Shown: positions 9,663 to 60,035, counted from the first letter of the whole stretch. The stretch is 60,035 nt of DNA, filler included, from 4 parts of 4 records of this genome joined end to end with filler, not necessarily neighbours in it, one strand, 5' to 3'. Notes: generated from the letters alone by a model not told the origin. Made by a program: numbers and translations.

Positions 9663-9762
9663 NNNNNNNNNNNNNNNNNNNNNNNNNNNNNNNNNNNNNN
9701 NNNNNNTTAATTAATTAANNNNNNNNNNNNNNNNNNNNNNNNNNNNNNNNNNNNNNNNNNNN
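9663..9762. other. Artificial contig spacer
   Basis: N-run containing TTAATTAATTAA (stops in all six frames); base composition and gene content change across it. Confidence 0.99.
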
Positions 9763-23398: not shown

Positions 23399-23498
23399 NN
23401 NNNNNNNNNNNNNNNNNNNNNNNNNNNNNNNNNNNNNNNNNNTTAATTAATTAANNNNNNNNNNNNNNNNNNNNNNNNNNNNNNNNNNNNNNNNNNNN
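23399..23498. other. Artificial contig spacer
   Basis: N-run containing TTAATTAATTAA. Confidence 0.99.
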
Positions 23499-49745: not shown

Positions 49746-49845
49746 NNNNNNNNNNNNNNNNNNNNNNNNNNNNNNNNNNNNNNNNNNNNTTAATTAATTA
49801 ANNNNNNNNNNNNNNNNNNNNNNNNNNNNNNNNNNNNNNNNNNNN
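49746..49845. other. Artificial contig spacer
   Basis: N-run containing TTAATTAATTAA. Confidence 0.99.
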
Positions 49846-50142
49846 GGCATAAAAATTTTTGTCTGTCATTTTTCCTTTCTGGATTTTATTGAGAAGACTT
49901 TTTTCTGCATCACTTCTATGTTGTTCCTCAATATTTGTAGCAATTACTGCTACTCTTCCCTCATATATTAATTCAGAAGCATATTTTTCACTAATACTTG
50001 AATAAAGATTAAACTGATGATTTTGTTCTGAACCCTCCTCTAGGGCATCCATTAGTTTTTTATCTATTTTAGGGTCCTTATAGCTTTTGCTAAACTTGAT
50101 ATGGTTTTTTGTGTTGTAATATTTATTTTCTGAAGTGGTCAT
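49846..50142 (-). CDS. Hypothetical protein; 3' truncated
   Basis: AAGGA SD before the ATG; frame open to the contig edge. Confidence 0.65.
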
Positions 50143-50411
50143 AATATTCCTTGTTTTTATAATATTTTATGTGTTAAGTATTAACCAAAGCTTAATTAAC
50201 TTTAAATTTTAAAAGAAAATGAAAGTTGATAAAGAAAAGTCTCTATTTTTTCTAAACAGTATTTAAAATGGTAAAAAAGCTACGATTTATCGTGCTTTTG
50301 GAATTGTTTTCGAAGGTGTGTAGGAGTGTTGGGATTATAGTGTTCGCCCCTGCGAACACTAACCTTTAAAAATTAAAAAGAAGTTTAGTGATGTATTTAA
50401 ATATTTCGAGT

Positions 50412-51167
50412 TTATTGATTCTCTTTAATTATTATGTGAACTTCTTCATTGTGTTTCCTTACCTCCTCTCCTAATTTGTCAAAGAAATCTTTAGGGTGTT
50501 TATATAATTCTTGATTATTTGTTAGTATTAACTCTTCAGTTGTAGTAAGGGTTCTAATCATATTTTTTAATTTGCCATCTTCTCCAAATTTTCTTACGAT
50601 AATAAAAGAGCCAAATTGTATAATACTTTCTTCCTCTTTCGTAGATTCTAATAATTGTGAAATTGCAGAAGCTAAATTTACATCTAATTCCACTTGAGAT
50701 TTATTAACTGTTTTATTTTCTATATGTCTCTCTATTTTTTTTACTTTTTCTTTTACTTCTTTATTGGTAACCAAGTTTTTAGTTACTGCCATTATGCGTT
50801 TAAATATGGATCCAATTTTTTCAACATCTAAATCAACATACAAATTTAGTTCATTAAAGATTTTATCAAATGCATATATTATTACCTCTCTGTTGTTTGC
50901 ATTAGAAAAATAGAGTATTACATTAATACCTCTTAAACATTTTTTACTTTTACTTAATGGGTTTGTTTCTATAATTCCATAAAGCATAGCTTCTCTTAAT
51001 GCACTCTCTTCAAGTAACTGATTATATTTAGATACTAAATTATTATATTTCTCTCTAGCTTCAGACCTGTTCAGAGGGTATCTCGAAAATAGGTGAGCTT
51101 TTGATCTCAATCGTGGTCTTCTTCTGGAAGATATACTGTTATAAAAATCGACTTTATTTATTGGCAT
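50412..51167 (-). CDS. Hypothetical protein
   Basis: 251-aa ORF with AAGGA SD. Confidence 0.75.
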   Translation of the reverse strand: MPINKVDFYNSISSRRRPRLRSKAHLFSRYPLNRSEAREKYNNLVSKYNQLLEESALREAMLYGIIETNPLSKSKKCLRGINVILYFSNANNREVIIYAFDKIFNELNLYVDLDVEKIGSIFKRIMAVTKNLVTNKEVKEKVKKIERHIENKTVNKSQVELDVNLASAISQLLESTKEEESIIQFGSFIIVRKFGEDGKLKNMIRTLTTTEELILTNNQELYKHPKDFFDKLGEEVRKHNEEVHIIIKENQ

Positions 51168-51255
51168 AGTACTATCCTTGAGTTTATATAGTATTGTAAT
51201 AAAATATGAATTAATTTTAATAATTATTAAGTTTATGGCATAAAATTAATTTTAA

Positions 51256-51314
51256 AATAATTCTAAATAATTTAGATTATATATATTGACAAATTAATAT
51301 TTTATCTATATACT
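51256..51314 (+). promoter_or_regulatory. Inverted repeat plus sigma70 promoter for the DUF2726/recombinase pair
   Basis: AATAATTCTAA-ATAAT-TTAGATTAT, then TTGACA(51286)-17 nt-TATACT(51309). Confidence 0.7.
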
Positions 51315-51344
51315 TAAGTTAGACTATTATAGGAGAAATTTATA

Positions 51345-52217
51345 GTGAAGAAACAAAATAACTATTCAATTGAAGAACTATATTTATTACTACAAAATAA
51401 ACAATGGAATAAATTACTACAGTTTGAAAAAGAAAATAGAAAACAAATATTAAAAGATGATCAAATAAAAAATATTTATGAAAATTTCTTTTTTCCAGAG
51501 TATATTAAATATATAGAACTATTGGACGACAAACTTAGTTCAATTGTTGAAGCGAAACAGCTATATAAACATTTTATACAACTATATAACACTAGTACAT
51601 ATCATTTTGAAGATAATTTTATAGCATTTACAGTAGTTTTTTTAGATATGTTAAAAGATGATAATTTAGAAATAGCCTATACTTATGCGAAAAAATGGGA
51701 AGAACTTGATGTTGCAAAGCTTATCATCGAAGAGTACTCAAAAAATAAAGTGCTGCACTCACAGAGCGACATTATGCATATCAAAAAAATTGAAGACACT
51801 AAAAAAAATAGATCCACTATAAATCTTTTAAAAAGCAAACAAGAAGTTGACTTTTTTAATGCAGTAAGAAGTTGCTATATGAATTTTTTTATCTATCCCA
51901 ATGTAGCATTAAGCTGTATAATTGATTTTGAAAAGATTGAAGCTGAACTTACTGAGCAAGAAAAAGCATATTTTTTTAAATCAATTGTAGATTGTGTTGT
52001 ATTTAAAGAGGAAAATAATAATTATAAGCCATGCTTCTTTTTTGAACTTGATAGCATCTATCATGATACAGAAAAAATGAAACAAAATGATAATAAAAAA
52101 AATAGAATATTTGAATTGTCAGGACTCAAATTGATAAGAATAAGACCAAAAAGAGAAGAAAAATTGAATGAAGAAAATTTTAAAATTGCTATCAATGAGG
52201 CAATAGGAAATGAATAA
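51345..52217 (+). CDS. DUF2726 domain protein (restriction-endonuclease-like fold)
   Basis: IYPNVAL..II, VDCVVF, FFELDSIYHD and DNKKNRIF..SGLKLIRI motifs; AGGAG SD. Confidence 0.8.
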   Translation: MKKQNNYSIEELYLLLQNKQWNKLLQFEKENRKQILKDDQIKNIYENFFFPEYIKYIELLDDKLSSIVEAKQLYKHFIQLYNTSTYHFEDNFIAFTVVFLDMLKDDNLEIAYTYAKKWEELDVAKLIIEEYSKNKVLHSQSDIMHIKKIEDTKKNRSTINLLKSKQEVDFFNAVRSCYMNFFIYPNVALSCIIDFEKIEAELTEQEKAYFFKSIVDCVVFKEENNNYKPCFFFELDSIYHDTEKMKQNDNKKNRIFELSGLKLIRIRPKREEKLNEENFKIAINEAIGNE

Positions 52218-53310
52218 ACAATTATTAGAGTTTGATAGTTTTGAAAAAGACTATTTAAAATGGGCTAGACTATACTCACTAAATAAATACAATACCTTTG
52301 ATAAAACTAAAGTGAAAGATAGTTTTGATGTAGTTGCACTTGAAGATATGCTATTAAATGAATCAATAGAAAGTATCGAAGAACTACATAAAATAAATAA
52401 CCTGATTAACAGCAGAGGTTTAAAGCAAATGGCTACCTTATCAATGGCTATTAAGAAGTTTTATTATTATGCTAAAGATATAGTAAACTCATTTAATGAG
52501 CTTAATAGTGACTTGATAAAGCAGTATGTAAATAAAGACTGTATAGACCAAAACTTAGTATATAAAACAAGATGTAACTACAAGAATAATTTAGTAGCTT
52601 TTTTGACTTTTGTAAACAATGAAAATAGTGATAAAATCAAATTGGAAATTGAAAAGAAGATTGAAGTTATCTCTAATTCAGATGATAAAAAAAATCCTTA
52701 CAAGCTAATTGATTGGATGGATAGTAAAATGGTAAAACATTTTATTAAGAGTATGGTTTCTTTTGCTTATCCAAATGAGTTTGAAAAATGTAGAGATATA
52801 TTAATTACTAGACTTTTAATTTGTGGTGGATTAGAAGTTACAGAGCTTGTAAATGTAAAAGAAGAAGATTTTACTTTTGAAACAAATTCTATGAGTATCA
52901 ATGTTACTAAAGCAAATGGTAAAACAAGAGAAGTACCTTTGCCTAAAGCTTTATTTATAAGATACTACAATGAATACTTAAAGATAAAAGATAATGAATC
53001 AGATTTGTTTTTTTATAGTCCAAAAGATAAGACTACTCCAATAGAAAAAAACCTAGTAAAAAGTATTGTTGAAAAGCTTGTAGAGTTCTCTAGAATCAAT
53101 GTTAGAGATAAAACACCAAAAATGCTTAGAAAATCTTATATTATATTTATACATAATGAAAAGAATAAAGATGGACTTACACAACCACTTGCAAATGTTC
53201 AAAAATTAAGTGGAATAGAGAATGTATCAGATTTAAAAGAGATATTAAAATATGCAACTGTTGATTTGGTTACAGCTAGTGATGGTTTTGAATCATTAAA
53301 TATAAAATAA
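52210..53310 (+). CDS. XerH-like tyrosine recombinase with degenerate catalytic motifs
   Basis: 366 aa with a XerH-like N-terminus. Box I reads GGLEVTEL; box II reads TPKMLRKSY...VQKLSGI. Confidence 0.75.
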   Translation: MNKQLLEFDSFEKDYLKWARLYSLNKYNTFDKTKVKDSFDVVALEDMLLNESIESIEELHKINNLINSRGLKQMATLSMAIKKFYYYAKDIVNSFNELNSDLIKQYVNKDCIDQNLVYKTRCNYKNNLVAFLTFVNNENSDKIKLEIEKKIEVISNSDDKKNPYKLIDWMDSKMVKHFIKSMVSFAYPNEFEKCRDILITRLLICGGLEVTELVNVKEEDFTFETNSMSINVTKANGKTREVPLPKALFIRYYNEYLKIKDNESDLFFYSPKDKTTPIEKNLVKSIVEKLVEFSRINVRDKTPKMLRKSYIIFIHNEKNKDGLTQPLANVQKLSGIENVSDLKEILKYATVDLVTASDGFESLNIK

Positions 53311-53362
53311 TTCTAATTTATTTAGAATTATTATTGACATTCTCAACAAAAAAGAGTACAAT
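53306..53362 (+). promoter_or_regulatory. Perfect 11-5-11 inverted repeat plus sigma70 promoter facing the ORF array
   Basis: AATAATTCTAA-TTTAT-TTAGAATTATT, then TTGACA(53334)-17 nt-TACAAT(53357). Confidence 0.75.
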
Positions 53363-53414
53363 ACTCTTATAAATAAAAAATAAGCATATTTGATATGCTA
53401 TAAAGGAAAATATA

Positions 53415-53579
53415 GTGATTGAAGCAGCAGAAGAACAAATTTTAGCTAATTTAAATAAATTAGATACAAAAGAGGTTGAAGAGATAGCGGAAAATTATGA
53501 TTATCAATGGGATGAAAATGAATCTACAAGTAGAAATTTAAGAGAACTTGCAGAAGTTATGTTCAATAGAGAATCATAA
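53415..53579 (+). CDS. Small acidic hypothetical protein (54 aa; not in the ORF track)
   Basis: AAGGA SD and GTG start; MIEAAEEQILANLNK...MFNRES*. Confidence 0.65.
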   Translation: MIEAAEEQILANLNKLDTKEVEEIAENYDYQWDENESTSRNLRELAEVMFNRES

Positions 53580-53608
53580 TAAATATACAGTAAAGCAAGG
53601 AGTTCAAT

Positions 53609-54025
53609 ATGATTTTATTAGTTCCAATTAAAAGCGAAAGACTGTCAAGTAGTTGTGTTGTTATAGACTTTGACAACATCGCAAAAGAAGTCACTTTTGA
53701 AGATAAATTTATAGGATTTACAGATAAAAGGTTTACTTTAAAAATTCCAGTTGCTCAATTAAAAAAAGCTATTGAAAACGCAGGATATACAATAGGTATG
53801 CTAAAAAAAGATGTTGAAGTAGTAAAAAGATTCGGAAAATTTTATTACAAGATTGTATTAGACAAAGAAGACAATGTGACTAAGCAAAGAAAAGATTTAA
53901 TGGATAGAAAAAAGAAAAATCTTCTTGCTAAAATTAAAGATAAAGAAGAAGAAATCAAGATTAAAAATGAAGAACTTTTATCAATGAAAGAACTACTAAA
54001 AAAATTAGAAAGAAAATCTGCATAA
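53609..54025 (+). CDS. Hypothetical protein with coiled-coil C-terminus
   Basis: AAGGAG SD. Confidence 0.75.
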   Translation: MILLVPIKSERLSSSCVVIDFDNIAKEVTFEDKFIGFTDKRFTLKIPVAQLKKAIENAGYTIGMLKKDVEVVKRFGKFYYKIVLDKEDNVTKQRKDLMDRKKKNLLAKIKDKEEEIKIKNEELLSMKELLKKLERKSA

Positions 54026-54048
54026 TTATATGCAATAAAGGTTGAGTA

Positions 54049-54354
54049 ATGATTTTTGAGAAAGAAGATATAGTTGAGTTTAATTCACTTTTTGATAAAA
54101 AACTTACTAAAAAAGGTTGTCATACAATAAGTTTCTATGATGGAAAAGATGAAGCACAATTTGAAATAAAAAAAGAGGAAGAAAATGTTTTTTACATTAT
54201 GAGAGCAACAAATAAAAAACATTATGATTGTATCTTTGATTTCAACAAACAATCTATTAAGCAGATTCATACATGGAATTTAGATTTACCAAACAGAATG
54301 ATTAAATCTACTTTCAAAATGGCACTTGATAGATTGAAAAAATTAGAAAATTAA
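54049..54354 (+). CDS. Hypothetical protein
   Basis: AAGG SD within the junction motif. Confidence 0.7.
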   Translation: MIFEKEDIVEFNSLFDKKLTKKGCHTISFYDGKDEAQFEIKKEEENVFYIMRATNKKHYDCIFDFNKQSIKQIHTWNLDLPNRMIKSTFKMALDRLKKLEN

Positions 54355-54582
54355 AGCCAGTCGGATTTTATCAAGTATTTTTCAAAGATGGAAGTTCAAA
54401 TATAGGATGTATAGGAAGATATGATGATAATTATAATGTAAAAGCATCATTATGGATTGCCTTTCCAAATGTATACAATGGGAGTTTTAAAATTACTAAA
54501 AGTTTTGCTAAAACTATAAGCAAAGTAGAAAGAAAATATTAAACCCCAATGAGTAAAATTTAATACAATAAAGGTTCAAAAT

Positions 54583-54753
54583 ATGACAACTATTGAAATT
54601 ACAGAAGAACAACTAGAAGCAATTAAAGACTTAGCTGATGATATACAATCAATGATAGGTGGTGCTGATAATGATGAACACTGGCAAAATTGTATTGATA
54701 AGATAGATGAAGTTTTAGAACAAAATAAATTAACACCAAGAACATTTGGTTAA
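54583..54753 (+). CDS. Small acidic hypothetical protein (56 aa; not in the ORF track)
   Basis: MTTIEITEEQLEAIK...PRTFG*, bounded by junction motifs on both sides. Confidence 0.7.
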   Translation: MTTIEITEEQLEAIKDLADDIQSMIGGADNDEHWQNCIDKIDEVLEQNKLTPRTFG

Positions 54754-54782
54754 TGCAATAAAGTAAGAAGGAAAATTAAAAG

Positions 54783-55133
54783 ATGAAAATTAATACTAAG
54801 AACAAAGAATCAGGATTAAAGGTTTTAGCAATAATTTTATTAATTGTATCAACACCATACTATATGATATTGCTACCAAAAGTATTTTTAGGTTTCGCTG
54901 CTATATATAGTAGTCCTAATGATATGATTGCACATTCATCAATGATGATACTTGGTTTTGTGGCAGCAGTTGGTATGGCTTATAATTCATATAAAATGAT
55001 TGTAGAATGGGATAAAAGTATTCATGTTGTTTTTAAAGAATCTGTTTTTCTTCTTTTTTTAATCTTAGTTTATATAAATACATTGAAAGAACCAACGAGA
55101 GTTATTATTGATTACTTAGAAAGTTTAGTTTAG
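54783..55133 (+). CDS. Membrane protein, hypothetical
   Basis: Three hydrophobic segments; AAGGA SD. Confidence 0.7.
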   Translation: MKINTKNKESGLKVLAIILLIVSTPYYMILLPKVFLGFAAIYSSPNDMIAHSSMMILGFVAAVGMAYNSYKMIVEWDKSIHVVFKESVFLLFLILVYINTLKEPTRVIIDYLESLV

Positions 55134-55150
55134 TAATTGGAAAATATTAA

Positions 55151-55390
55151 ATGATTAATTTTAAAAGCCCACTTACTAAATCAAATTTGTTGATATTGTG
55201 TTTGGTATATATTATTTCAATAGTTTTCTTTTTTACAATAGCTTTTGAACAAAATTTGGAAACCTTTTTTGGTTCTGTTAAAATTGCAACGGTTATTGTA
55301 CTTATTCCTACATTAATAGGTTGGTATCTTTTAAAATGGATATTTGAAGGAATTTATACAATGTTACGAGTAAAAGAAAAAAATAAATAA
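55151..55390 (+). CDS. Small two-TM hypothetical protein
   Basis: Two hydrophobic segments. Confidence 0.65.
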   Translation: MINFKSPLTKSNLLILCLVYIISIVFFFTIAFEQNLETFFGSVKIATVIVLIPTLIGWYLLKWIFEGIYTMLRVKEKNK

Positions 55391-55489
55391 GTATCTAAAA
55401 GGTGCTGTAAGGGATAATATTGCAATGTGTAATACTATTATGTATATTGAATTAAAGTAATAAAATATGATAAAAAAAGGTTGTGAAAA

Positions 55490-56128
55490 ATGGAAACTGC
55501 TACAAAAAAAATAAAAGAAGTTGAAAATGATAATTCAGAGGATAATTCTTTTTTAAAGATCTTTCTAGGATTGATTCTTATAGTAATGTTTTGGGCTTTA
55601 CTAGATAACAAAGAATCTAAAAATAAAGCTCTTGAAGCAGAAGTTAGAAATGTACATTTTGAGTTATATGATTATAAAAAAAATGTAGTATTAAATAATA
55701 AGGCATCAATTACTAAATATATCCAAAGTAACTTTCAAGATATTAATGAATATAGATTAGTTTCAATTGCAAACAATGAAGAATATTCTACATTAACAGT
55801 AATTATTAATGAGCCTATAAAAACGACTAAAAATGAATTAGGATATAGAAAAGATAATTTCTATTTAATTGATGTAAAAATCACTCCTGAAAAGTTGGAA
55901 TTAATTGAGCTTACAAAACAAATACCTTTACAGGTAAACAATAAAAATAAATTGGATAATGAGAAAATTTGGTATCAAAAAATTCACGACTTTTTCCCTA
56001 ATCCCGTAACAGGTTTTATTTTAGGACTTAAGGGATTTGCAAAAAAGGTTAATTCTATGGTTATTGAATCTAAAAGAAGTTCGATTGAAAAGCCAATATA
56101 CTTAGAAAAAATAAATAATCCAAAATGA
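55490..56128 (+). CDS. Membrane-anchored hypothetical protein
   Basis: One N-terminal TM segment; AAGG SD. Confidence 0.7.
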   Translation: METATKKIKEVENDNSEDNSFLKIFLGLILIVMFWALLDNKESKNKALEAEVRNVHFELYDYKKNVVLNNKASITKYIQSNFQDINEYRLVSIANNEEYSTLTVIINEPIKTTKNELGYRKDNFYLIDVKITPEKLELIELTKQIPLQVNNKNKLDNEKIWYQKIHDFFPNPVTGFILGLKGFAKKVNSMVIESKRSSIEKPIYLEKINNPK

Positions 56129-56211
56129 TTAAGTTCAATAGGTCTAACTTTTAATAGTTGGACTGTTTGAGTTTATTAAATTGCACTAAAAAAGTGTTAT
56201 TAAGGAATAAA

Positions 56212-56397
56212 ATGTTTGAAAAAAGAATAGAAGAAATAGAGGGGCTTGGATTAGAATTTATACCTAAATATAATAGCTATTGCTTCAAAGATGTTAATGT
56301 AGGAGTGGTTGAAGTTCAAACAATGAGTGATGAAAAATGGAACAAACTTATTGACGAAATAAAACCAGTTATTGAAGCTAGAAAATCAGCACAATAA
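56212..56397 (+). CDS. Hypothetical protein
   Basis: AAGGA SD then ATG 56212; the stop lies inside a junction motif variant. Confidence 0.7.
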   Translation: MFEKRIEEIEGLGLEFIPKYNSYCFKDVNVGVVEVQTMSDEKWNKLIDEIKPVIEARKSAQ

Positions 56398-56425
56398 ATG
56401 CTATAAAGTTGATTGGGGTAAAGAT

Positions 56426-56764
56426 ATGAATAAAATTATTATAGGTTCAATATTAGCAGCAAGTATTTCTTTTGCTAATAATAATATGGAAGAAGTTGTG
56501 AAGTTTGCTAATGAGATATGTGGTTCTATAAATCTAAATGGTAAAATGGAAAAAATTGATATAGATATACATTTTACAGATAAGAACAAAAAAGAGTTAA
56601 TACAGCTTTTAAAAGATATGGGTTTTGAAGATGTTGAAATTAGGGATAATAGGATAATCAAGAGAAGCTATTCATATAAAGGTATCCCAAGAGAAAAAAT
56701 ATCTCAATCAATGAAAGAGATAAGAAAATGCAAAATGGATATCGTAAAAAGTATGATGCAGTAA
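56426..56764 (+). CDS. Secreted hypothetical protein
   Basis: Signal peptide MNKIIIGSILAASISFA; the stop lies inside the junction motif. Confidence 0.7.
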   Translation: MNKIIIGSILAASISFANNNMEEVVKFANEICGSINLNGKMEKIDIDIHFTDKNKKELIQLLKDMGFEDVEIRDNRIIKRSYSYKGIPREKISQSMKEIRKCKMDIVKSMMQ

Positions 56765-56776
56765 AGAGGTTGTTTT

Positions 56777-57022
56777 ATGAATAAGCAAGAGATTATTGAT
56801 AAAAAGTGTTTTTGTATCTTTTCAAATGAAAATGAATCTAAGTTATTAGAGCTTGGCTTTAAATATTGGATAGGTAGAGGTAATTTAGAGAAAATAAGTT
56901 CTGACAATACTGCACAATTTTTCATATTAGAAGATGATGAAATAAAAACTGGTGTCAATGCAGATATTGTCAATTTTACTGAAATAAAAATAATTGATAA
57001 TAAATTTAATTTAGTACAATAA
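56777..57022 (+). CDS. Hypothetical protein
   Basis: GAGG SD; the stop lies inside the junction motif. Confidence 0.7.
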   Translation: MNKQEIIDKKCFCIFSNENESKLLELGFKYWIGRGNLEKISSDNTAQFFILEDDEIKTGVNADIVNFTEIKIIDNKFNLVQ

Positions 57023-57032
57023 AGGGCTTTTA

Positions 57033-57317
57033 ATGGAAGTGTATTATATTGGCAAAAACAAAAAAGAAACTTCAAAATTTATACATAGTGAGATTGAAAA
57101 GAATGAACTTATCTCTAAGAAAAAAATATTAATAGATGATACAAAACAAGAAATTTATTTAATAGATGGTTACAGTTTAAATAATATATATAAATATCCT
57201 GATGATAGAAAATATTTAGTATTCAAAGATGGTGTTTATGTAAATTCTATATTTCGAGAGTTCTCAAAAAGTTTGTTAAGTCTTATTGAGTCAAAAACTA
57301 TTAAAAACATACAATAA
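57033..57317 (+). CDS. Hypothetical protein
   Basis: Bounded by junction motifs on both sides. Confidence 0.7.
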   Translation: MEVYYIGKNKKETSKFIHSEIEKNELISKKKILIDDTKQEIYLIDGYSLNNIYKYPDDRKYLVFKDGVYVNSIFREFSKSLLSLIESKTIKNIQ

Positions 57318-57325
57318 AGGGTTTA

Positions 57326-57796
57326 GTGATGGATAATTTCTTGAAAACACTAGTTGAATTGGATTTTTTTGAAATGAGTAATGAAGAATTAAATACTTAT
57401 ATAGAAGAGAATAAGGAATCAATCATTGAGGCTTTAACAGTAGATGGTGAACAGTTAGGTGAAGCTATTTTTAAAGATATGAATGAAACTGGTTTTAGAT
57501 ATTTTTTAGATGAATTAAAATTGCGTGGTGATCGTAAATCATCACAAACTCTTTTATTTGAAATTGAAAACTACAATAAAGAAGCTGTAATATGTGCAGG
57601 TATTGGGGTAGATTACAACAGATATATTTTAATTAAAGATTACTTCGTTGAAGAGCTTAAAAAAGTTGATAAACTGGATGAGATTGAGGAGCAACTTATT
57701 CAAACTTGTTGTATAAGTTTTGCAAGAAAAAACAATAATTCTTATAAAGAAGGGATTGAATTTATAATCAATGGGTCACTAAAGAGTAAAGATTAA
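57326..57796 (+). CDS. Acidic hypothetical protein
   Basis: 156-aa ORF following a junction motif. Confidence 0.72.
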   Translation: MMDNFLKTLVELDFFEMSNEELNTYIEENKESIIEALTVDGEQLGEAIFKDMNETGFRYFLDELKLRGDRKSSQTLLFEIENYNKEAVICAGIGVDYNRYILIKDYFVEELKKVDKLDEIEEQLIQTCCISFARKNNNSYKEGIEFIINGSLKSKD

Positions 57797-57891
57797 CTGT
57801 TATGTTTAAAAAAGCACAATAAATGATGAATGATAATCTCTCTAAAAGAGGGATTTCATCTCACTGGAGTAATGAATTAAGGAGTTAGTTA

Positions 57892-58038
57892 ATGTTTAGA
57901 ATAATAATAAAAATCATAAATAATTGGAAAGAGAAAAGAAGAGTCCAAAAAGAAAAAGATAGACTAATTGCCTCACTTGATGAAAGAGGATTATATGAAC
58001 AATCAGCACTTATTGAAGCATTAAGTAGTAAAAAATAA
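57892..58038 (+). CDS. Small hypothetical protein (48 aa; not in the ORF track)
   Basis: AAGGAG SD; MFRIIIKIINNWKEKRR...LSSKK*. Confidence 0.6.
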   Translation: MFRIIIKIINNWKEKRRVQKEKDRLIASLDERGLYEQSALIEALSSKK

Positions 58039-58111
58039 GTATAAGTAGCATCAAAACTTTTTTAAAAAGTTTCTTGATCTGATTAATGTAGAAAAGTTAA
58101 AAAGGATTGGA

Positions 58112-58570
58112 ATGAAGTATATTGAAATAAAAAATAATGGTGAGCATGGTTGGAATTTGGATGCAATTCTAGCTAACTTGGGATATTGTCTATCAAGCAC
58201 TACAGATGATGATTTTTACAAAAAACTTGAAAGAATAGGAAAAAACTTAGCAGTTATAATATTAAATAAATATTCAAAAGATGAACTAATAGAAATGTTC
58301 AAATCTAGCATATCAAATTCACAATACCAAAATTGTTCTTGCGTAAAAAATGAATACAACATAAATAGTTGTCATATTGATTATCTAAGCAGTATGATAA
58401 GTTCTTTATCAGAGTATTCAAATAGAGAAAAAGGTTTATTTAGTAAATATTTTGATAAAAACAACATTATTGATTTCTTTACATTATATTTCACAATTAT
58501 GAAAAATAATAATGAGTTTAAATTTTTACTTGAAGAACCAAGTAGAAATATGCCAAAAGCACATGACTAG
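58112..58570 (+). CDS. Hypothetical protein
   Basis: AAGGA SD. Confidence 0.7.
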   Translation: MKYIEIKNNGEHGWNLDAILANLGYCLSSTTDDDFYKKLERIGKNLAVIILNKYSKDELIEMFKSSISNSQYQNCSCVKNEYNINSCHIDYLSSMISSLSEYSNREKGLFSKYFDKNNIIDFFTLYFTIMKNNNEFKFLLEEPSRNMPKAHD

Positions 58571-58588
58571 TGTAGTAAAGGATAAAGA

Positions 58589-58927
58589 TTGAAAAAGTTA
58601 CTAATATGTTTAATGGTTTTAGGAAGTTCTCTTTTTGGGGAGGAAGTTGTAGAAGTTATTATTCCTTTAGAAGCACATAATTTAAATGTAGGAAGTAAAT
58701 CTACTTTTAAATTGGACAATAAAATAGTTAAATATCAAGTGCTTTCTAAGAACAATACGGAAGTTTGTGTAAAGTCATTAACAAAAGATGTCGAGTTTAT
58801 GAATCAATGTAGAGCTATTTTTAAAAACTCATTAATAAAAGAAGTTGAGTTGAGACTAGAGAATGAAAATTTTAGAGAAGAACTACAAATACTTATTAAC
58901 AAGTATCCTGATATGGATATACGATAA
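58589..58927 (+). CDS. Secreted hypothetical protein
   Basis: Signal peptide MKKLLICLMVLGSSLFG; the stop lies inside a motif variant. Confidence 0.7.
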   Translation: MKKLLICLMVLGSSLFGEEVVEVIIPLEAHNLNVGSKSTFKLDNKIVKYQVLSKNNTEVCVKSLTKDVEFMNQCRAIFKNSLIKEVELRLENENFREELQILINKYPDMDIR

Positions 58928-58937
58928 AGGTTATAAA

Positions 58938-59222
58938 ATGGAAAAACAATTTATAAAAAGTAGTATTGAAAATGAATCTATTGTAAGAATTTTCCAAAAA
59001 AATTACAATAATACGATAAGTCATATCGGTAGTCTTGTTAAAGAGGCAAAAATAGATTTTCCAGACTTAAAAGATAGAGACATAAGAGTCGTTGTTTTGA
59101 GTGGAGAAAGATATGACAGAATGACTGCGATTGAATTTTCTTCACCAAAAAATGAAGTTCCTGAAACTTATTTTGAGTGGACTAGAACAGATGAGCTAGG
59201 ATTCTGTAAAACTTATAATTAA
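58938..59222 (+). CDS. Hypothetical protein
   Basis: AAGG SD then ATG 58938. Confidence 0.7.
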   Translation: MEKQFIKSSIENESIVRIFQKNYNNTISHIGSLVKEAKIDFPDLKDRDIRVVVLSGERYDRMTAIEFSSPKNEVPETYFEWTRTDELGFCKTYN

Positions 59223-59242
59223 ACATGCAATAAAGGAAATAA

Positions 59243-59539
59243 ATGATTACAATATTTGACTTAGGTGGCAATAAAAAAGAATTAGAAACAGAAGAGTTTT
59301 TAGATTTGAACGATGAGTGTCATTCACGTTCTGAGATTACTTTCTTAAAATTTGACCCAGACAATTTAAATGCAGAATTTGATGAATTATTCAGATGTTA
59401 TAACAATAACGGATGTACAGAGTTAAATACTGATGATCAAAATTTTGATGAAGATAGAAGTTTTTTATGTTGCAATAAAGATATTAATTTTAAAGAACTT
59501 GAAATTAATACAGATAATAGTTTTTCTATGGATTTATAG
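59243..59539 (+). CDS. Acidic hypothetical protein
   Basis: AAGGA SD within the junction motif. Confidence 0.7.
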   Translation: MITIFDLGGNKKELETEEFLDLNDECHSRSEITFLKFDPDNLNAEFDELFRCYNNNGCTELNTDDQNFDEDRSFLCCNKDINFKELEINTDNSFSMDL

Positions 59540-59595
59540 AAACAACACATAATTAACAAATAATATTAATAAGAAAAAGACTAATAAGGAAAAAA

Positions 59596-59721
59596 ATGTT
59601 TTTAACTAGACTAAAAGAACAATTAACTAATTTGACTCCAATACAATGGTTATTTGGATTAGGTTTATTTTATGTAATAGGCTTAATAAATGGATTTCTA
59701 TTCTTAAAATACTTAATTTAG
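59596..59721 (+). CDS. 41-aa single-TM peptide (not in the ORF track)
   Basis: AAGGA SD; MFLTRLKEQLTNLTPIQWLFGLGLFYVIGLINGFLFLKYLI*. Confidence 0.6.
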   Translation: MFLTRLKEQLTNLTPIQWLFGLGLFYVIGLINGFLFLKYLI

Positions 59722-59735
59722 AACAAGGATAAATA

Positions 59736-60011
59736 ATGAAAAGATTACTGTTAGGATTGATATTATCTGTAACTATGTCACCTGCAATTTCAGTTGTTGA
59801 ATTATCAGAATTAGAATATAAGAGAGGTGATGTTATTACAGTAAAGCTTGGTTTAATAAACTCAAATGGATATCCTGTTTGCATTGGAAGAACACTATTT
59901 TTCAATTATCCAAAAGTATCTTATCAATTATTTGATCATAAGAATAAAAGACCTTATAAATGTAGAGCTGAACAAAACAGAGAAAAAGAATATAAGATAA
60001 TAATTGAGTAA
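59736..60011 (+). CDS. Secreted hypothetical protein
   Basis: AAGGA SD; signal peptide. Confidence 0.68.
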   Translation: MKRLLLGLILSVTMSPAISVVELSELEYKRGDVITVKLGLINSNGYPVCIGRTLFFNYPKVSYQLFDHKNKRPYKCRAEQNREKEYKIIIE

Positions 60012-60035
60012 GATAAAATCTAAAATTTAAGTGAA

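Follow-up and report, generated by a model that had tools for sequence, protein, structure and literature searches.

Integrons are the textbook route by which promoterless genes are stacked and reshuffled: behind one promoter stand co-directional, mostly promoterless small open reading frames (ORFs), and each unit carries at its 3′ end a recombination site that often includes the stop codon. The integron integrase, IntI, is a tyrosine recombinase with an additional domain specific to integrons; the recombination sites, attC, are imperfect inverted repeats that form hairpins; and cassettes leave as circles and enter at the primary site. Cluster A mycobacteriophages offer another kind of punctuation, the stoperator, a 13-bp asymmetric sequence that recurs in many copies in short intergenic spaces and keeps one orientation with respect to transcription. 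The start-associated sequences (SAS) of Cluster K mycobacteriophages, in the part of Pope et al. (2011; PMC3203893) that treats them, are 13-bp asymmetric repeats located 3 to 7 bp before the starts of nonstructural genes; they come with a Shine–Dalgarno (SD) sequence and sometimes with the upstream stop codon, and approximately half have an upstream inverted repeat. The promoter-early stem-loops (PeSLs) of T4-type phages are repeats between small nonessential ORFs, and the sections of Arbiol et al. (2010; PMC2839356) devoted to them describe insertions, deletions and replacements by recombination between copies, with circles carrying single ORFs both proposed and detected. Here, we describe an array of 19 co-directional small ORFs (41 to 212 aa; 53415–60011, plus strand) in a stretch of DNA of 60,035 nt, hereafter the window, and the 10-nt motif TRCARTAAAG that marks its gene junctions. 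By analogy, the layout of this array appears closest to SAS and its behavior closest to T4-type PeSLs, with integron cassettes also similar.

Our preferred reading, to which we give slightly less than even confidence, is motif-targeted exchange: the junction element A-T-R-C-A-R-T-A-A-A-G(G) of Arcobacteraceae plasmid-like accessory arrays would also be the crossover point of gene modules. The motif would then have two faces, one in expression (a stop to its left, a ribosome-binding context to its right) and one in recombination (modules lost, duplicated, or replaced at direct copies). The window concatenates four contigs, separated by N44-TTAATTAATTAA-N44 spacers at 9663–9762, 23399–23498, and 49746–49845. 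The GC content of the four pieces is ~45%, 40%, 35%, and 25% in order; the neighboring pieces may originate in other replicons or organisms, and only the last piece (49846–60035, 25% GC) belongs to the array element, the array running off the window end.

The motif also marks junctions in three arrays of the 170-kb plasmid pAMYT of Malaciobacter mytili and in one array of a Halarcobacter metagenome-assembled genome (MAG). Array 1 of pAMYT has a promoter, a leader nearly identical to 53367–53405 of the window, and then ~13 small co-directional ORFs; array 2 adjoins a DnaB-like helicase gene, and array 3 is short. Junctions in array 1 read ATGAAATAAAGG, ATGCAGTAAAG, and the like. The Halarcobacter array was found with a pattern drawn from one junction family and lies on a 50-kb contig that also encodes a LexA-like repressor, a DpnD/PcfM-like protein, ParB, and a polyvalent-protein domain, genes that make this contig plasmid-like or akin to an integrative and conjugative element.

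All 11 exact copies of TRCARTAAAG in the window are on the plus strand and fall within 53586–59846. Shuffled versions of the 60-kb window contained 0.81 copies on average and at most 3. For the array alone (53300–60035), 2000 first-order Markov simulations gave an expectation of 0.12 with a maximum of 3, against the 11 observed; the minus strand has none. TRCAR precedes 11 of the 35 plus-strand TAAAG sequences of the array, compared with a TRCAR background of 0.0077 per position, so the enrichment of the motif exceeds what stop-plus-SD composition would produce. A sequence-only reading of this DNA, made earlier, had asked for the junction motif to be weighed against that composition and against shuffled controls, and the enrichment stands.

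Among the 19 gene starts in the window, 8 are preceded by an exact motif, 4 by a motif with one mismatch, and 7 by none; the 12 motifs, exact or not, lie 6 to 19 nt 5′ of the start. The eight exact junction copies, all at the coordinates that the sequence-only reading gave, are TACAGTAAAG (53586–53595, 13 nt 5′ of ATG 53609), TGCAATAAAG (54031–54040, 8 nt 5′ of ATG 54049), TACAATAAAG (54564–54573, 9 nt 5′ of ATG 54583), TGCAATAAAG again (54754–54763, 19 nt 5′ of ATG 54783, with a separate SD, AAGGAA, between), TGCAGTAAAG (56757–56766, 10 nt 5′ of ATG 56777), TACAATAAAG (57015–57024, 8 nt 5′ of ATG 57033, and 57310–57319, 6 to 9 nt 5′ of the next gene start), and TGCAATAAAG once more (59226–59235, 7 nt 5′ of ATG 59243). 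Junction variants had been put at about six; those with one mismatch number four. They are the first motif copy of the leader, TGCTATAAAG (53396–53405); TGCTATAAAG followed by TTGATTGGGGTAAAG (56399–56408), a long junction of which pAMYT has three more; TGTAGTAAAG (58571–58580, 8 nt 5′ of TTG 58589); and TACGATAAAG (58920–58929). Within ORFs we found three copies rather than the single one (59471) reported before: 57572–57581, read as Y-N-K within ORF 57326–57796 and either chance or a relic; 59471–59480, within ORF 59243–59539; and 59837–59846, within ORF 59736–60011. All of these sites are on the plus strand.

Pooling the five arrays gave 32 sites, 26 of which are followed after 6 to 21 nt by the start codon of an ORF that encodes 35 aa or more. 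An A is favored directly before the T of the motif (25 of 32 sites). The next base after the motif is G at 16 of 32 sites, where TAAAGG is likely the SD, and T at 9 of 32; a separate SD follows in those T-followed sites that were read, indicating that the motif is more than a ribosome-binding site. Ten of these 26 sites have the motif 12 to 21 nt upstream, with another SD between it and the start codon. On the upstream side, the TAA of the motif is the stop of the preceding ORF in roughly half of the junctions read from protein ends. Proteins that end at motif junctions in MMQ (stop in 56757–56766), LVQ (57015–57024), NIQ (57310–57319), and DIR (58920–58929) are present as previously described, whereas an SAQ ending assigned to the same cause arises from a second motif-like copy, 56389–56398, directly before the variant at 56399.

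Evidence that gene modules are exchanged at the motif comes from related sequences in which the array is rearranged. We compared the window with contigs of three sequencing runs (X1, X2, and X3), of which X2 comes from a different study. Array parts without cover in X2 and X3 were left out of the interpretation, and joints with only 21 to 31 letters on one side, which are A-rich and include 53405 to 59225, were discarded as unreliable. Record 11 of X2 (996 nt, one mismatch) matches 53376–54034 and then 58924–59260. It is without 4889 nt, or ~13 genes, and the joint falls within nine letters, ATAAAGGTT, common to the motifs at 54031 (left side) and 58920 (right side). No circle is seen among the contigs compared. 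Single ends of other matches also fall in motifs: record 13 of X2 begins to match at 59231 and record 21 of X3 at 58576, in each case the T of TAAAG (motifs 59226 and 58571); record 18 of X3 begins at 57317, within the motif at 57310; and the match of record 15 of X3 ends at 53406, at the leader's motif copy (53396).

On pAMYT, two copies of a gene for a 92-aa protein flank another gene. Apart from a single extra G in the second copy, the two agree fully from TAAAG as far as the following TAAAGG, where the identity ends; the five letters 5′ of TAAAG differ. A third break is provided by the leader (53367–53405), 37 of whose 39 positions are invariant in the window, in a metagenome contig (L076), and in pAMYT array 1; the three sequences are unrelated right after the TAAAG of the leader, and the first gene is different in each. 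The sequence-only reading had proposed that changes between related arrays be compared with motif positions, and the outcome is mostly in favor of breaks that coincide with the motif: the X2 joint, the pAMYT duplicate, and the break behind the leader are at the motif, and two changes, given below, are off it. It would also be conceivable that the motif is an expression or termination–reinitiation signal only and that breaks are merely tolerated in the intergenic junctions that it fills. The junctions of the window are indeed very short, with the motif making up most of each, and breaks are also seen in motif-free regions. This account is hard to square with an X2 joint whose 9-nt overlap is furnished by two motif copies separated by 4.9 kb, with a duplicated pAMYT unit that runs from TAAAG to TAAAGG, and with leader homology that ends at the same base in three elements. 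Several independent coincidences would be unlikely if the motif played no part, and we consider the account improbable.

A closer competitor holds that the motif is an expression signal first, either a start-associated sequence recognized by a small RNA or a protein or an RNA-processing site, through which the array genes would be co-regulated, and that exchange proceeds only through short homology, as with PeSLs, with no dedicated recombinase. The fixed distance to start codons, the confinement to the coding strand, and the inclusion of the SD and often the stop in the motif are what such a signal would look like, and the arrays have neither a common recombinase nor a recombination-site architecture. 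Precedents exist for each half of this account: SAS have the same layout and, in the section of PMC3203893 concerned with them, are thought to act in translation initiation, and PeSL copies mediate shuffling and mini-circle formation by recombination, according to the portion of PMC2839356 on these elements. The account fares less well with the 4.9-kb difference between sequences that have one mismatch in 996 nt and share just 9 to 10 letters at the joint, and with the gene duplicate on pAMYT, identical but for one extra G. Nor is the motif the ribosome-binding site at the 10 of 26 start sites with another SD in between, and the Halarcobacter operon has it at six consecutive junctions only, the remaining junctions using ordinary SDs. 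We hold this competitor to be possible, if on the doubtful side.

Stretches of 9 to 10 shared letters are far below the usual requirement of RecA-type exchange. Because near-identical sequences are nevertheless rearranged at such stretches, a dedicated enzyme is favored. Two further features of the compared arrays would fit such an enzyme: relatives differ in what stands next to the leader, and the motif keeps to series of successive junctions. Under motif-targeted exchange, recombination between motif copies in direct repeat would exchange modules of one to a few genes, and a crossover at or within TAAAG would leave each product with the stop of the left gene and the ribosome-binding site of the right gene. 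The most likely mechanism, in our view, is that the motif is targeted in trans by an enzyme whose gene lies elsewhere; the XerH-like protein encoded next to the array would not be the exchanging enzyme, and the hairpin-plus-motif leader behind the promoter may be the array entry point.

We also examined the site itself for structure and for pairing with rRNA. In M. mytili, the 16S rRNA terminates in …CCTCCTTTCAGAG; AAAGG pairs with the CCUUU of this 3′ tail and TRCAR does not. With its 5′ half unpaired, the motif is not simply a long SD, and extended pairing to 16S rRNA was rejected. An attC-like hairpin at the sites was likewise rejected, as there is no excess of stems over other array positions; stems of 6 to 8 bp exist in some junction families and in the leader. 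TRCART was considered as a −10 box and dropped, since the inferred transcript start would fall after the SD. Internal promoters or terminators at the junctions were also rejected, with 70 promoter-like sites found against 71.3 expected and 2 terminator-like sites against 1.4, the level of shuffled sequence.

The gene directly 5′ of the array encodes a tyrosine-recombinase homolog of 366 aa (52210–53310, plus strand; Pfam Phage_integrase, 8.9e-10; Phage_int_SAM_6, 3.6e-7) with a full-length match to Helicobacter pylori XerH (5jjv, 1.3e-8). Alignment to XerH 5jjv and the XerC-like protein 4a8e places GLEVTEL opposite GMRSNE/GLRVSEL and KMLRKS opposite HMLRHS, such that Arg-I is replaced by Glu, His-II by Lys, and His-III by Ile. 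The protein keeps the Lys, Arg-II, and a candidate Tyr, and the catalytic Arg-Lys-His-Arg-His/Trp-Tyr set is therefore incomplete. A homolog on the Arcobacter cryaerophilus plasmid pM830MA (L119, 8986–10077) has 39% identity and the same catalytic substitutions. Judged by these residues, the two proteins probably form a conserved noncatalytic subfamily, which suggests a DNA-binding role without recombination. The 160,910 bp of pM830MA contain a single exact motif, and the gene is not followed by an array. Just 5′ of this homolog (2734–7594 of L119), a phospholipase and a nucleotidyltransferase of a cyclic-oligonucleotide-based antiphage signaling system (CBASS) and an RnlA/RnlB pair are encoded, the context of a defense island. 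No array is present at four loci, on chromosomes or contigs, that have relatives of the XerH-like gene, of its upstream neighbor, or of both, and a protein-pattern scan of genome contigs with the XerH-like protein confirmed no relative.

The upstream neighbor, which is the first gene of a two-gene module 5′ of the array, encodes a DUF2726-domain protein of 290 aa (51345–52217, plus strand; Pfam PF10881, E = 3.4e-8) and has a promoter of its own, TTGACA-17-TATACT (51286–51314, plus strand). Direct repeats of 37 nt with the near-perfect palindrome AATTCTAAAT.ATTTAGAATT bracket the pair. One operator-like copy (51245–51281; direct repeat D1/D9, inverted repeat I19) stands just 5′ of the −35 element of the DUF2726 promoter, and the other (53295–53331) just 5′ of that of the array promoter. 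In contig L076, a single 37-nt repeat is followed directly by promoter and leader and the gene pair is absent, so that the pair looks like an insertion ahead of the array. From its placement, the repeat could serve both promoters as an operator or could be the site at which the two-gene module was inserted.

Recombinase genes near the other arrays are of other kinds. Array 1 of pAMYT comes after three tyrosine recombinases, no recombinase is near arrays 2 and 3, and the only other tyrosine recombinase of the plasmid is 60 kb away. Candidates on pAMYT for an exchanging enzyme would include these three and a 327-aa recombinase near 67 kb. The Halarcobacter motif run begins 45 nt after the gene of an intact 194-aa recombinase that is unrelated to that of the window and whose close homologs, among the matches listed, are only in two Arcobacter plasmids. 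Three of the five arrays thus sit behind recombinase-family genes of three different kinds, which is suggestive at most. The tie between the array and the adjacent recombinase that the sequence-only reading had drawn finds no support: the catalytic residues are replaced, relatives elsewhere come without an array, L076 has the leader without the gene, and pAMYT arrays 2 and 3 have no recombinase. Its observation that neither IntI nor attC is evident does hold, as the integron-integrase model TIGR02249 scores far below its cut-off and the sites show no excess of hairpins.

These data bear on whether the array is a true integron relative in which the motif is the site where the neighboring tyrosine recombinase captures cassettes. 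The order of recombinase-family gene, strong promoter, and promoterless small ORFs is that of an integron, and a recombinase gene is also directly 5′ of the Halarcobacter motif run and of pAMYT array 1. The replaced Arg-I, His-II, and His-III, integrase-model scores that reach 20.7 bits for the window protein and 26.9 bits for the Halarcobacter protein where the cut-off is 265, three neighboring recombinases of different kinds with two arrays lacking any, relatives of the window's recombinase that carry no array, a leader in L076 without the gene, and the absence of attC-like inverted repeats largely refute this account, and we regard it as very improbable. The earlier picture of an integron-like capture array is retained as far as exchangeable, motif-bounded modules are concerned, as seen at the X2 joint, the pAMYT duplicate, and the leader break; its integron-type mechanism is not.

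Several observations weigh against motif-targeted exchange. The cassette 54783–55133 matches pAMYT from ~5 nt 5′ of its ATG to ~35 nt past its stop, where there is no motif, and in an X2 contig 59572–59890 is replaced by 6 other letters in the motif-free end of the array. Because junctions share the motif and aligners extend a match to its edge, the exact crossover cannot be fixed from such comparisons. Seven of the 19 window junctions are without the motif, as counted above. The mean length of the best stem is 4.56 bp for stems that end at the motif (n = 32), compared with 4.62 bp at 2573 control positions (p = 0.66), and attC-like hairpins are absent. To our knowledge, no known tyrosine or serine recombinase has a site of this kind, asymmetric and 10 to 12 nt long. 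No recombinase is common to the arrays, and on p133_LEO_107, the plasmid with the closest homolog of the 194-aa recombinase, the annotation has no small genes following it, the motif itself not having been searched there. Finally, run X1 is the probable source of the window DNA, and all three runs were compared as assembled contigs rather than raw reads.

A stronger version of motif-targeted exchange is a new cassette system in which an enzyme would cut out and insert single genes or short blocks of genes on Arcobacteraceae plasmids at the 10 to 12 nt strand-specific site TRCAR/TAAAG, with the hairpin-plus-motif leader as entry site, resembling integrons while dispensing with IntI and attC. 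We rate this version as rather unlikely. If it were true, the site would double as stop and ribosome-binding site, so each insertion would be expressed at once. What the comparison offers in either case is a very short junction motif at which, by direct comparison of related sequences, genes are seen to be lost, duplicated, and replaced. This motif raises the questions of whether start-associated repeats serve translation, recombination, or both, and whether a cassette system needs either IntI or attC. Since motif arrays are present on plasmid pAMYT of the cultivable and non-dangerous strain M. mytili LMG 24559, these questions can be addressed at the bench.

Compared with the known systems, the motif has much in common with SAS as these are described in the relevant part of PMC3203893. 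Both are short and asymmetric, keep one orientation, and combine an SD core with positions that do not pair with 16S rRNA; both occur in accessory or nonstructural regions next to unrelated gene families and are essentially absent from host genomes. In the present case, all 11 exact copies are on one strand, 26 of 32 sites are 6 to 21 nt before a start, AAAGG is complementary to CCUUU, and arrays occur in 2 of 184 genomes of the family and 2 of 401 sampled from the order. The SAS sequence given in that part, GGGATAGGAGCCC, differs from the motif, and SAS belong to phages of actinobacteria, whereas the motif belongs to a plasmid-like element of Campylobacterota. The same part of PMC3203893 reports no role of SAS in gene gain or loss, whereas here breaks fall at the motif. 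PeSLs, in the portion of PMC2839356 that defines them, are composite stem-loops that join a strong sigma-70-like promoter to a terminator; the junctions here have promoter-like and terminator-like sites at the level of shuffled sequence, no excess of hairpins, and only 10 to 12 conserved letters. As in integrons, units of the array disappear, are duplicated, and turn up in new surroundings, and what stands beside the leader differs from one relative to the next. Unlike integrons, the array is without IntI, attC repeats, or a conserved adjacent recombinase, and its site is about ten times shorter. Stoperators are repressor-bound DNA sites that block transcription, and the motif is likened to them by layout alone; they are named in a portion of PMC3203893.

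The distribution of the motif outside the arrays was examined at several scales. In the Halarcobacter genome (G001), the 10-mer has 72 copies compared with 25 for a reversed control, and six are clustered in the array; 20 matches sampled from the chromosome include 2 that precede a start, and the rest are within long open frames. Across 184 Arcobacteraceae genomes, a pattern of two motifs 220 to 250 nt apart gave 37 matches against ~39 for the reversed control, of which only 5 lie in arrays, on contig 16 of G001 and contig 2 of G153, the latter at the same coordinates as pAMYT. A stricter pattern applied to 401 sampled Campylobacterales genomes found arrays in the same two only, with four extra single matches that are isolated pairs. 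The motif is a property of the element and not a general feature of the host. In IMG/VR, the leader pattern had no match, the long-junction pattern had 34 single matches with no locus exceeding two motif copies, and the paired pattern had at least 116 loci with no dense array among the matches listed. A metagenome scan with the leader pattern returned 43 loci, comprising 42 chance palindromes and one true relative (L076). Near and distant DNA similarity searches gave no match among phages and pAMYT only among plasmids. No description of the motif was found in literature searches on Arcobacter and mytili plasmids and on intergenic gene-cassette, SD, and recombination elements.

The gene at 54783–55133 is the only array gene of the window with close DNA similarity elsewhere (~90% identity over ~410 nt in pAMYT), and its pAMYT homolog closes an array of the same design. 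Shorter similarities are found at junctions, where segments of 40 to 60 nt are common to arrays with unrelated flanking genes, a further point in favor of motif-targeted exchange; one such segment of 47 nt is 94% identical between the Halarcobacter array and pAMYT array 2. A hairpin segment of 25 to 47 nt, ATATCC/GGATAT, occurs at four junctions in four arrays (window 58903–58929, 5′ of and including the motif at 58920; L001 10650–10676; L002 5021–5047; and the minus strand of L039 near 9506). In three of these arrays, it encodes the C terminus …YPD(M/L)D(I/M)(R/K/Q), followed by the stop, of otherwise dissimilar proteins; the Halarcobacter copy comes after the stop and is in another frame. 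The segment contains ATCCTG, which would match the core of IncP-type nick sites. In pAMYT (L001 10680–10740), a short ORF after a junction shares 82% identity at its start with the 5′ end of the gene that is duplicated, which hints at a third, truncated copy and at cassette decay.

The array promoter, TTGACA-17-TACAAT (53334–53362, plus strand), agrees with the consensus at 11 of 12 positions and is one of the two best promoter matches of the contig; the pAMYT and L076 promoters align to it, and a common promoter ahead of promoterless cassettes is thus present in these elements. The leader that follows (53367–53405, plus strand) consists of an A-rich tract, a 7-bp hairpin AGCATAT/ATATGCT, and the first motif copy, with a predicted RNA folding energy of −5.7 kcal/mol. 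About 20 small ORFs behind one strong promoter had been noted before, and 19 ORFs and the promoter are confirmed. A single transcript is not required, as a terminator-like hairpin with a T-rich tail (56141–56164, plus strand) after ORF 55490–56128 means that the array need not be one transcript. Pfam and PHROG scans of 20 cassette proteins yielded no family above threshold, and tblastn of two array proteins against plasmids yielded no match. An Rfam and tRNA search of 49846–60035 gave one subthreshold snoRNA match and no tRNA. As a guess, the some twenty small, family-less proteins of each array may be a place to seek functions in plasmid establishment or antidefense. A 63-codon open frame without an ATG, GTG, or TTG start (54354–54542) begins on the last stop base of ORF 54049–54354 in another frame and may be a 5′-truncated cassette or a frameshifted continuation. 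In run X1, a 45-kb contig contains the last piece of the window and continues ~26.7 kb past its end. The region of the terminator-like hairpin (56126–56176) recurs in this contig ~6.4 kb beyond the window end, and the array probably continues past the window with repeated punctuation.

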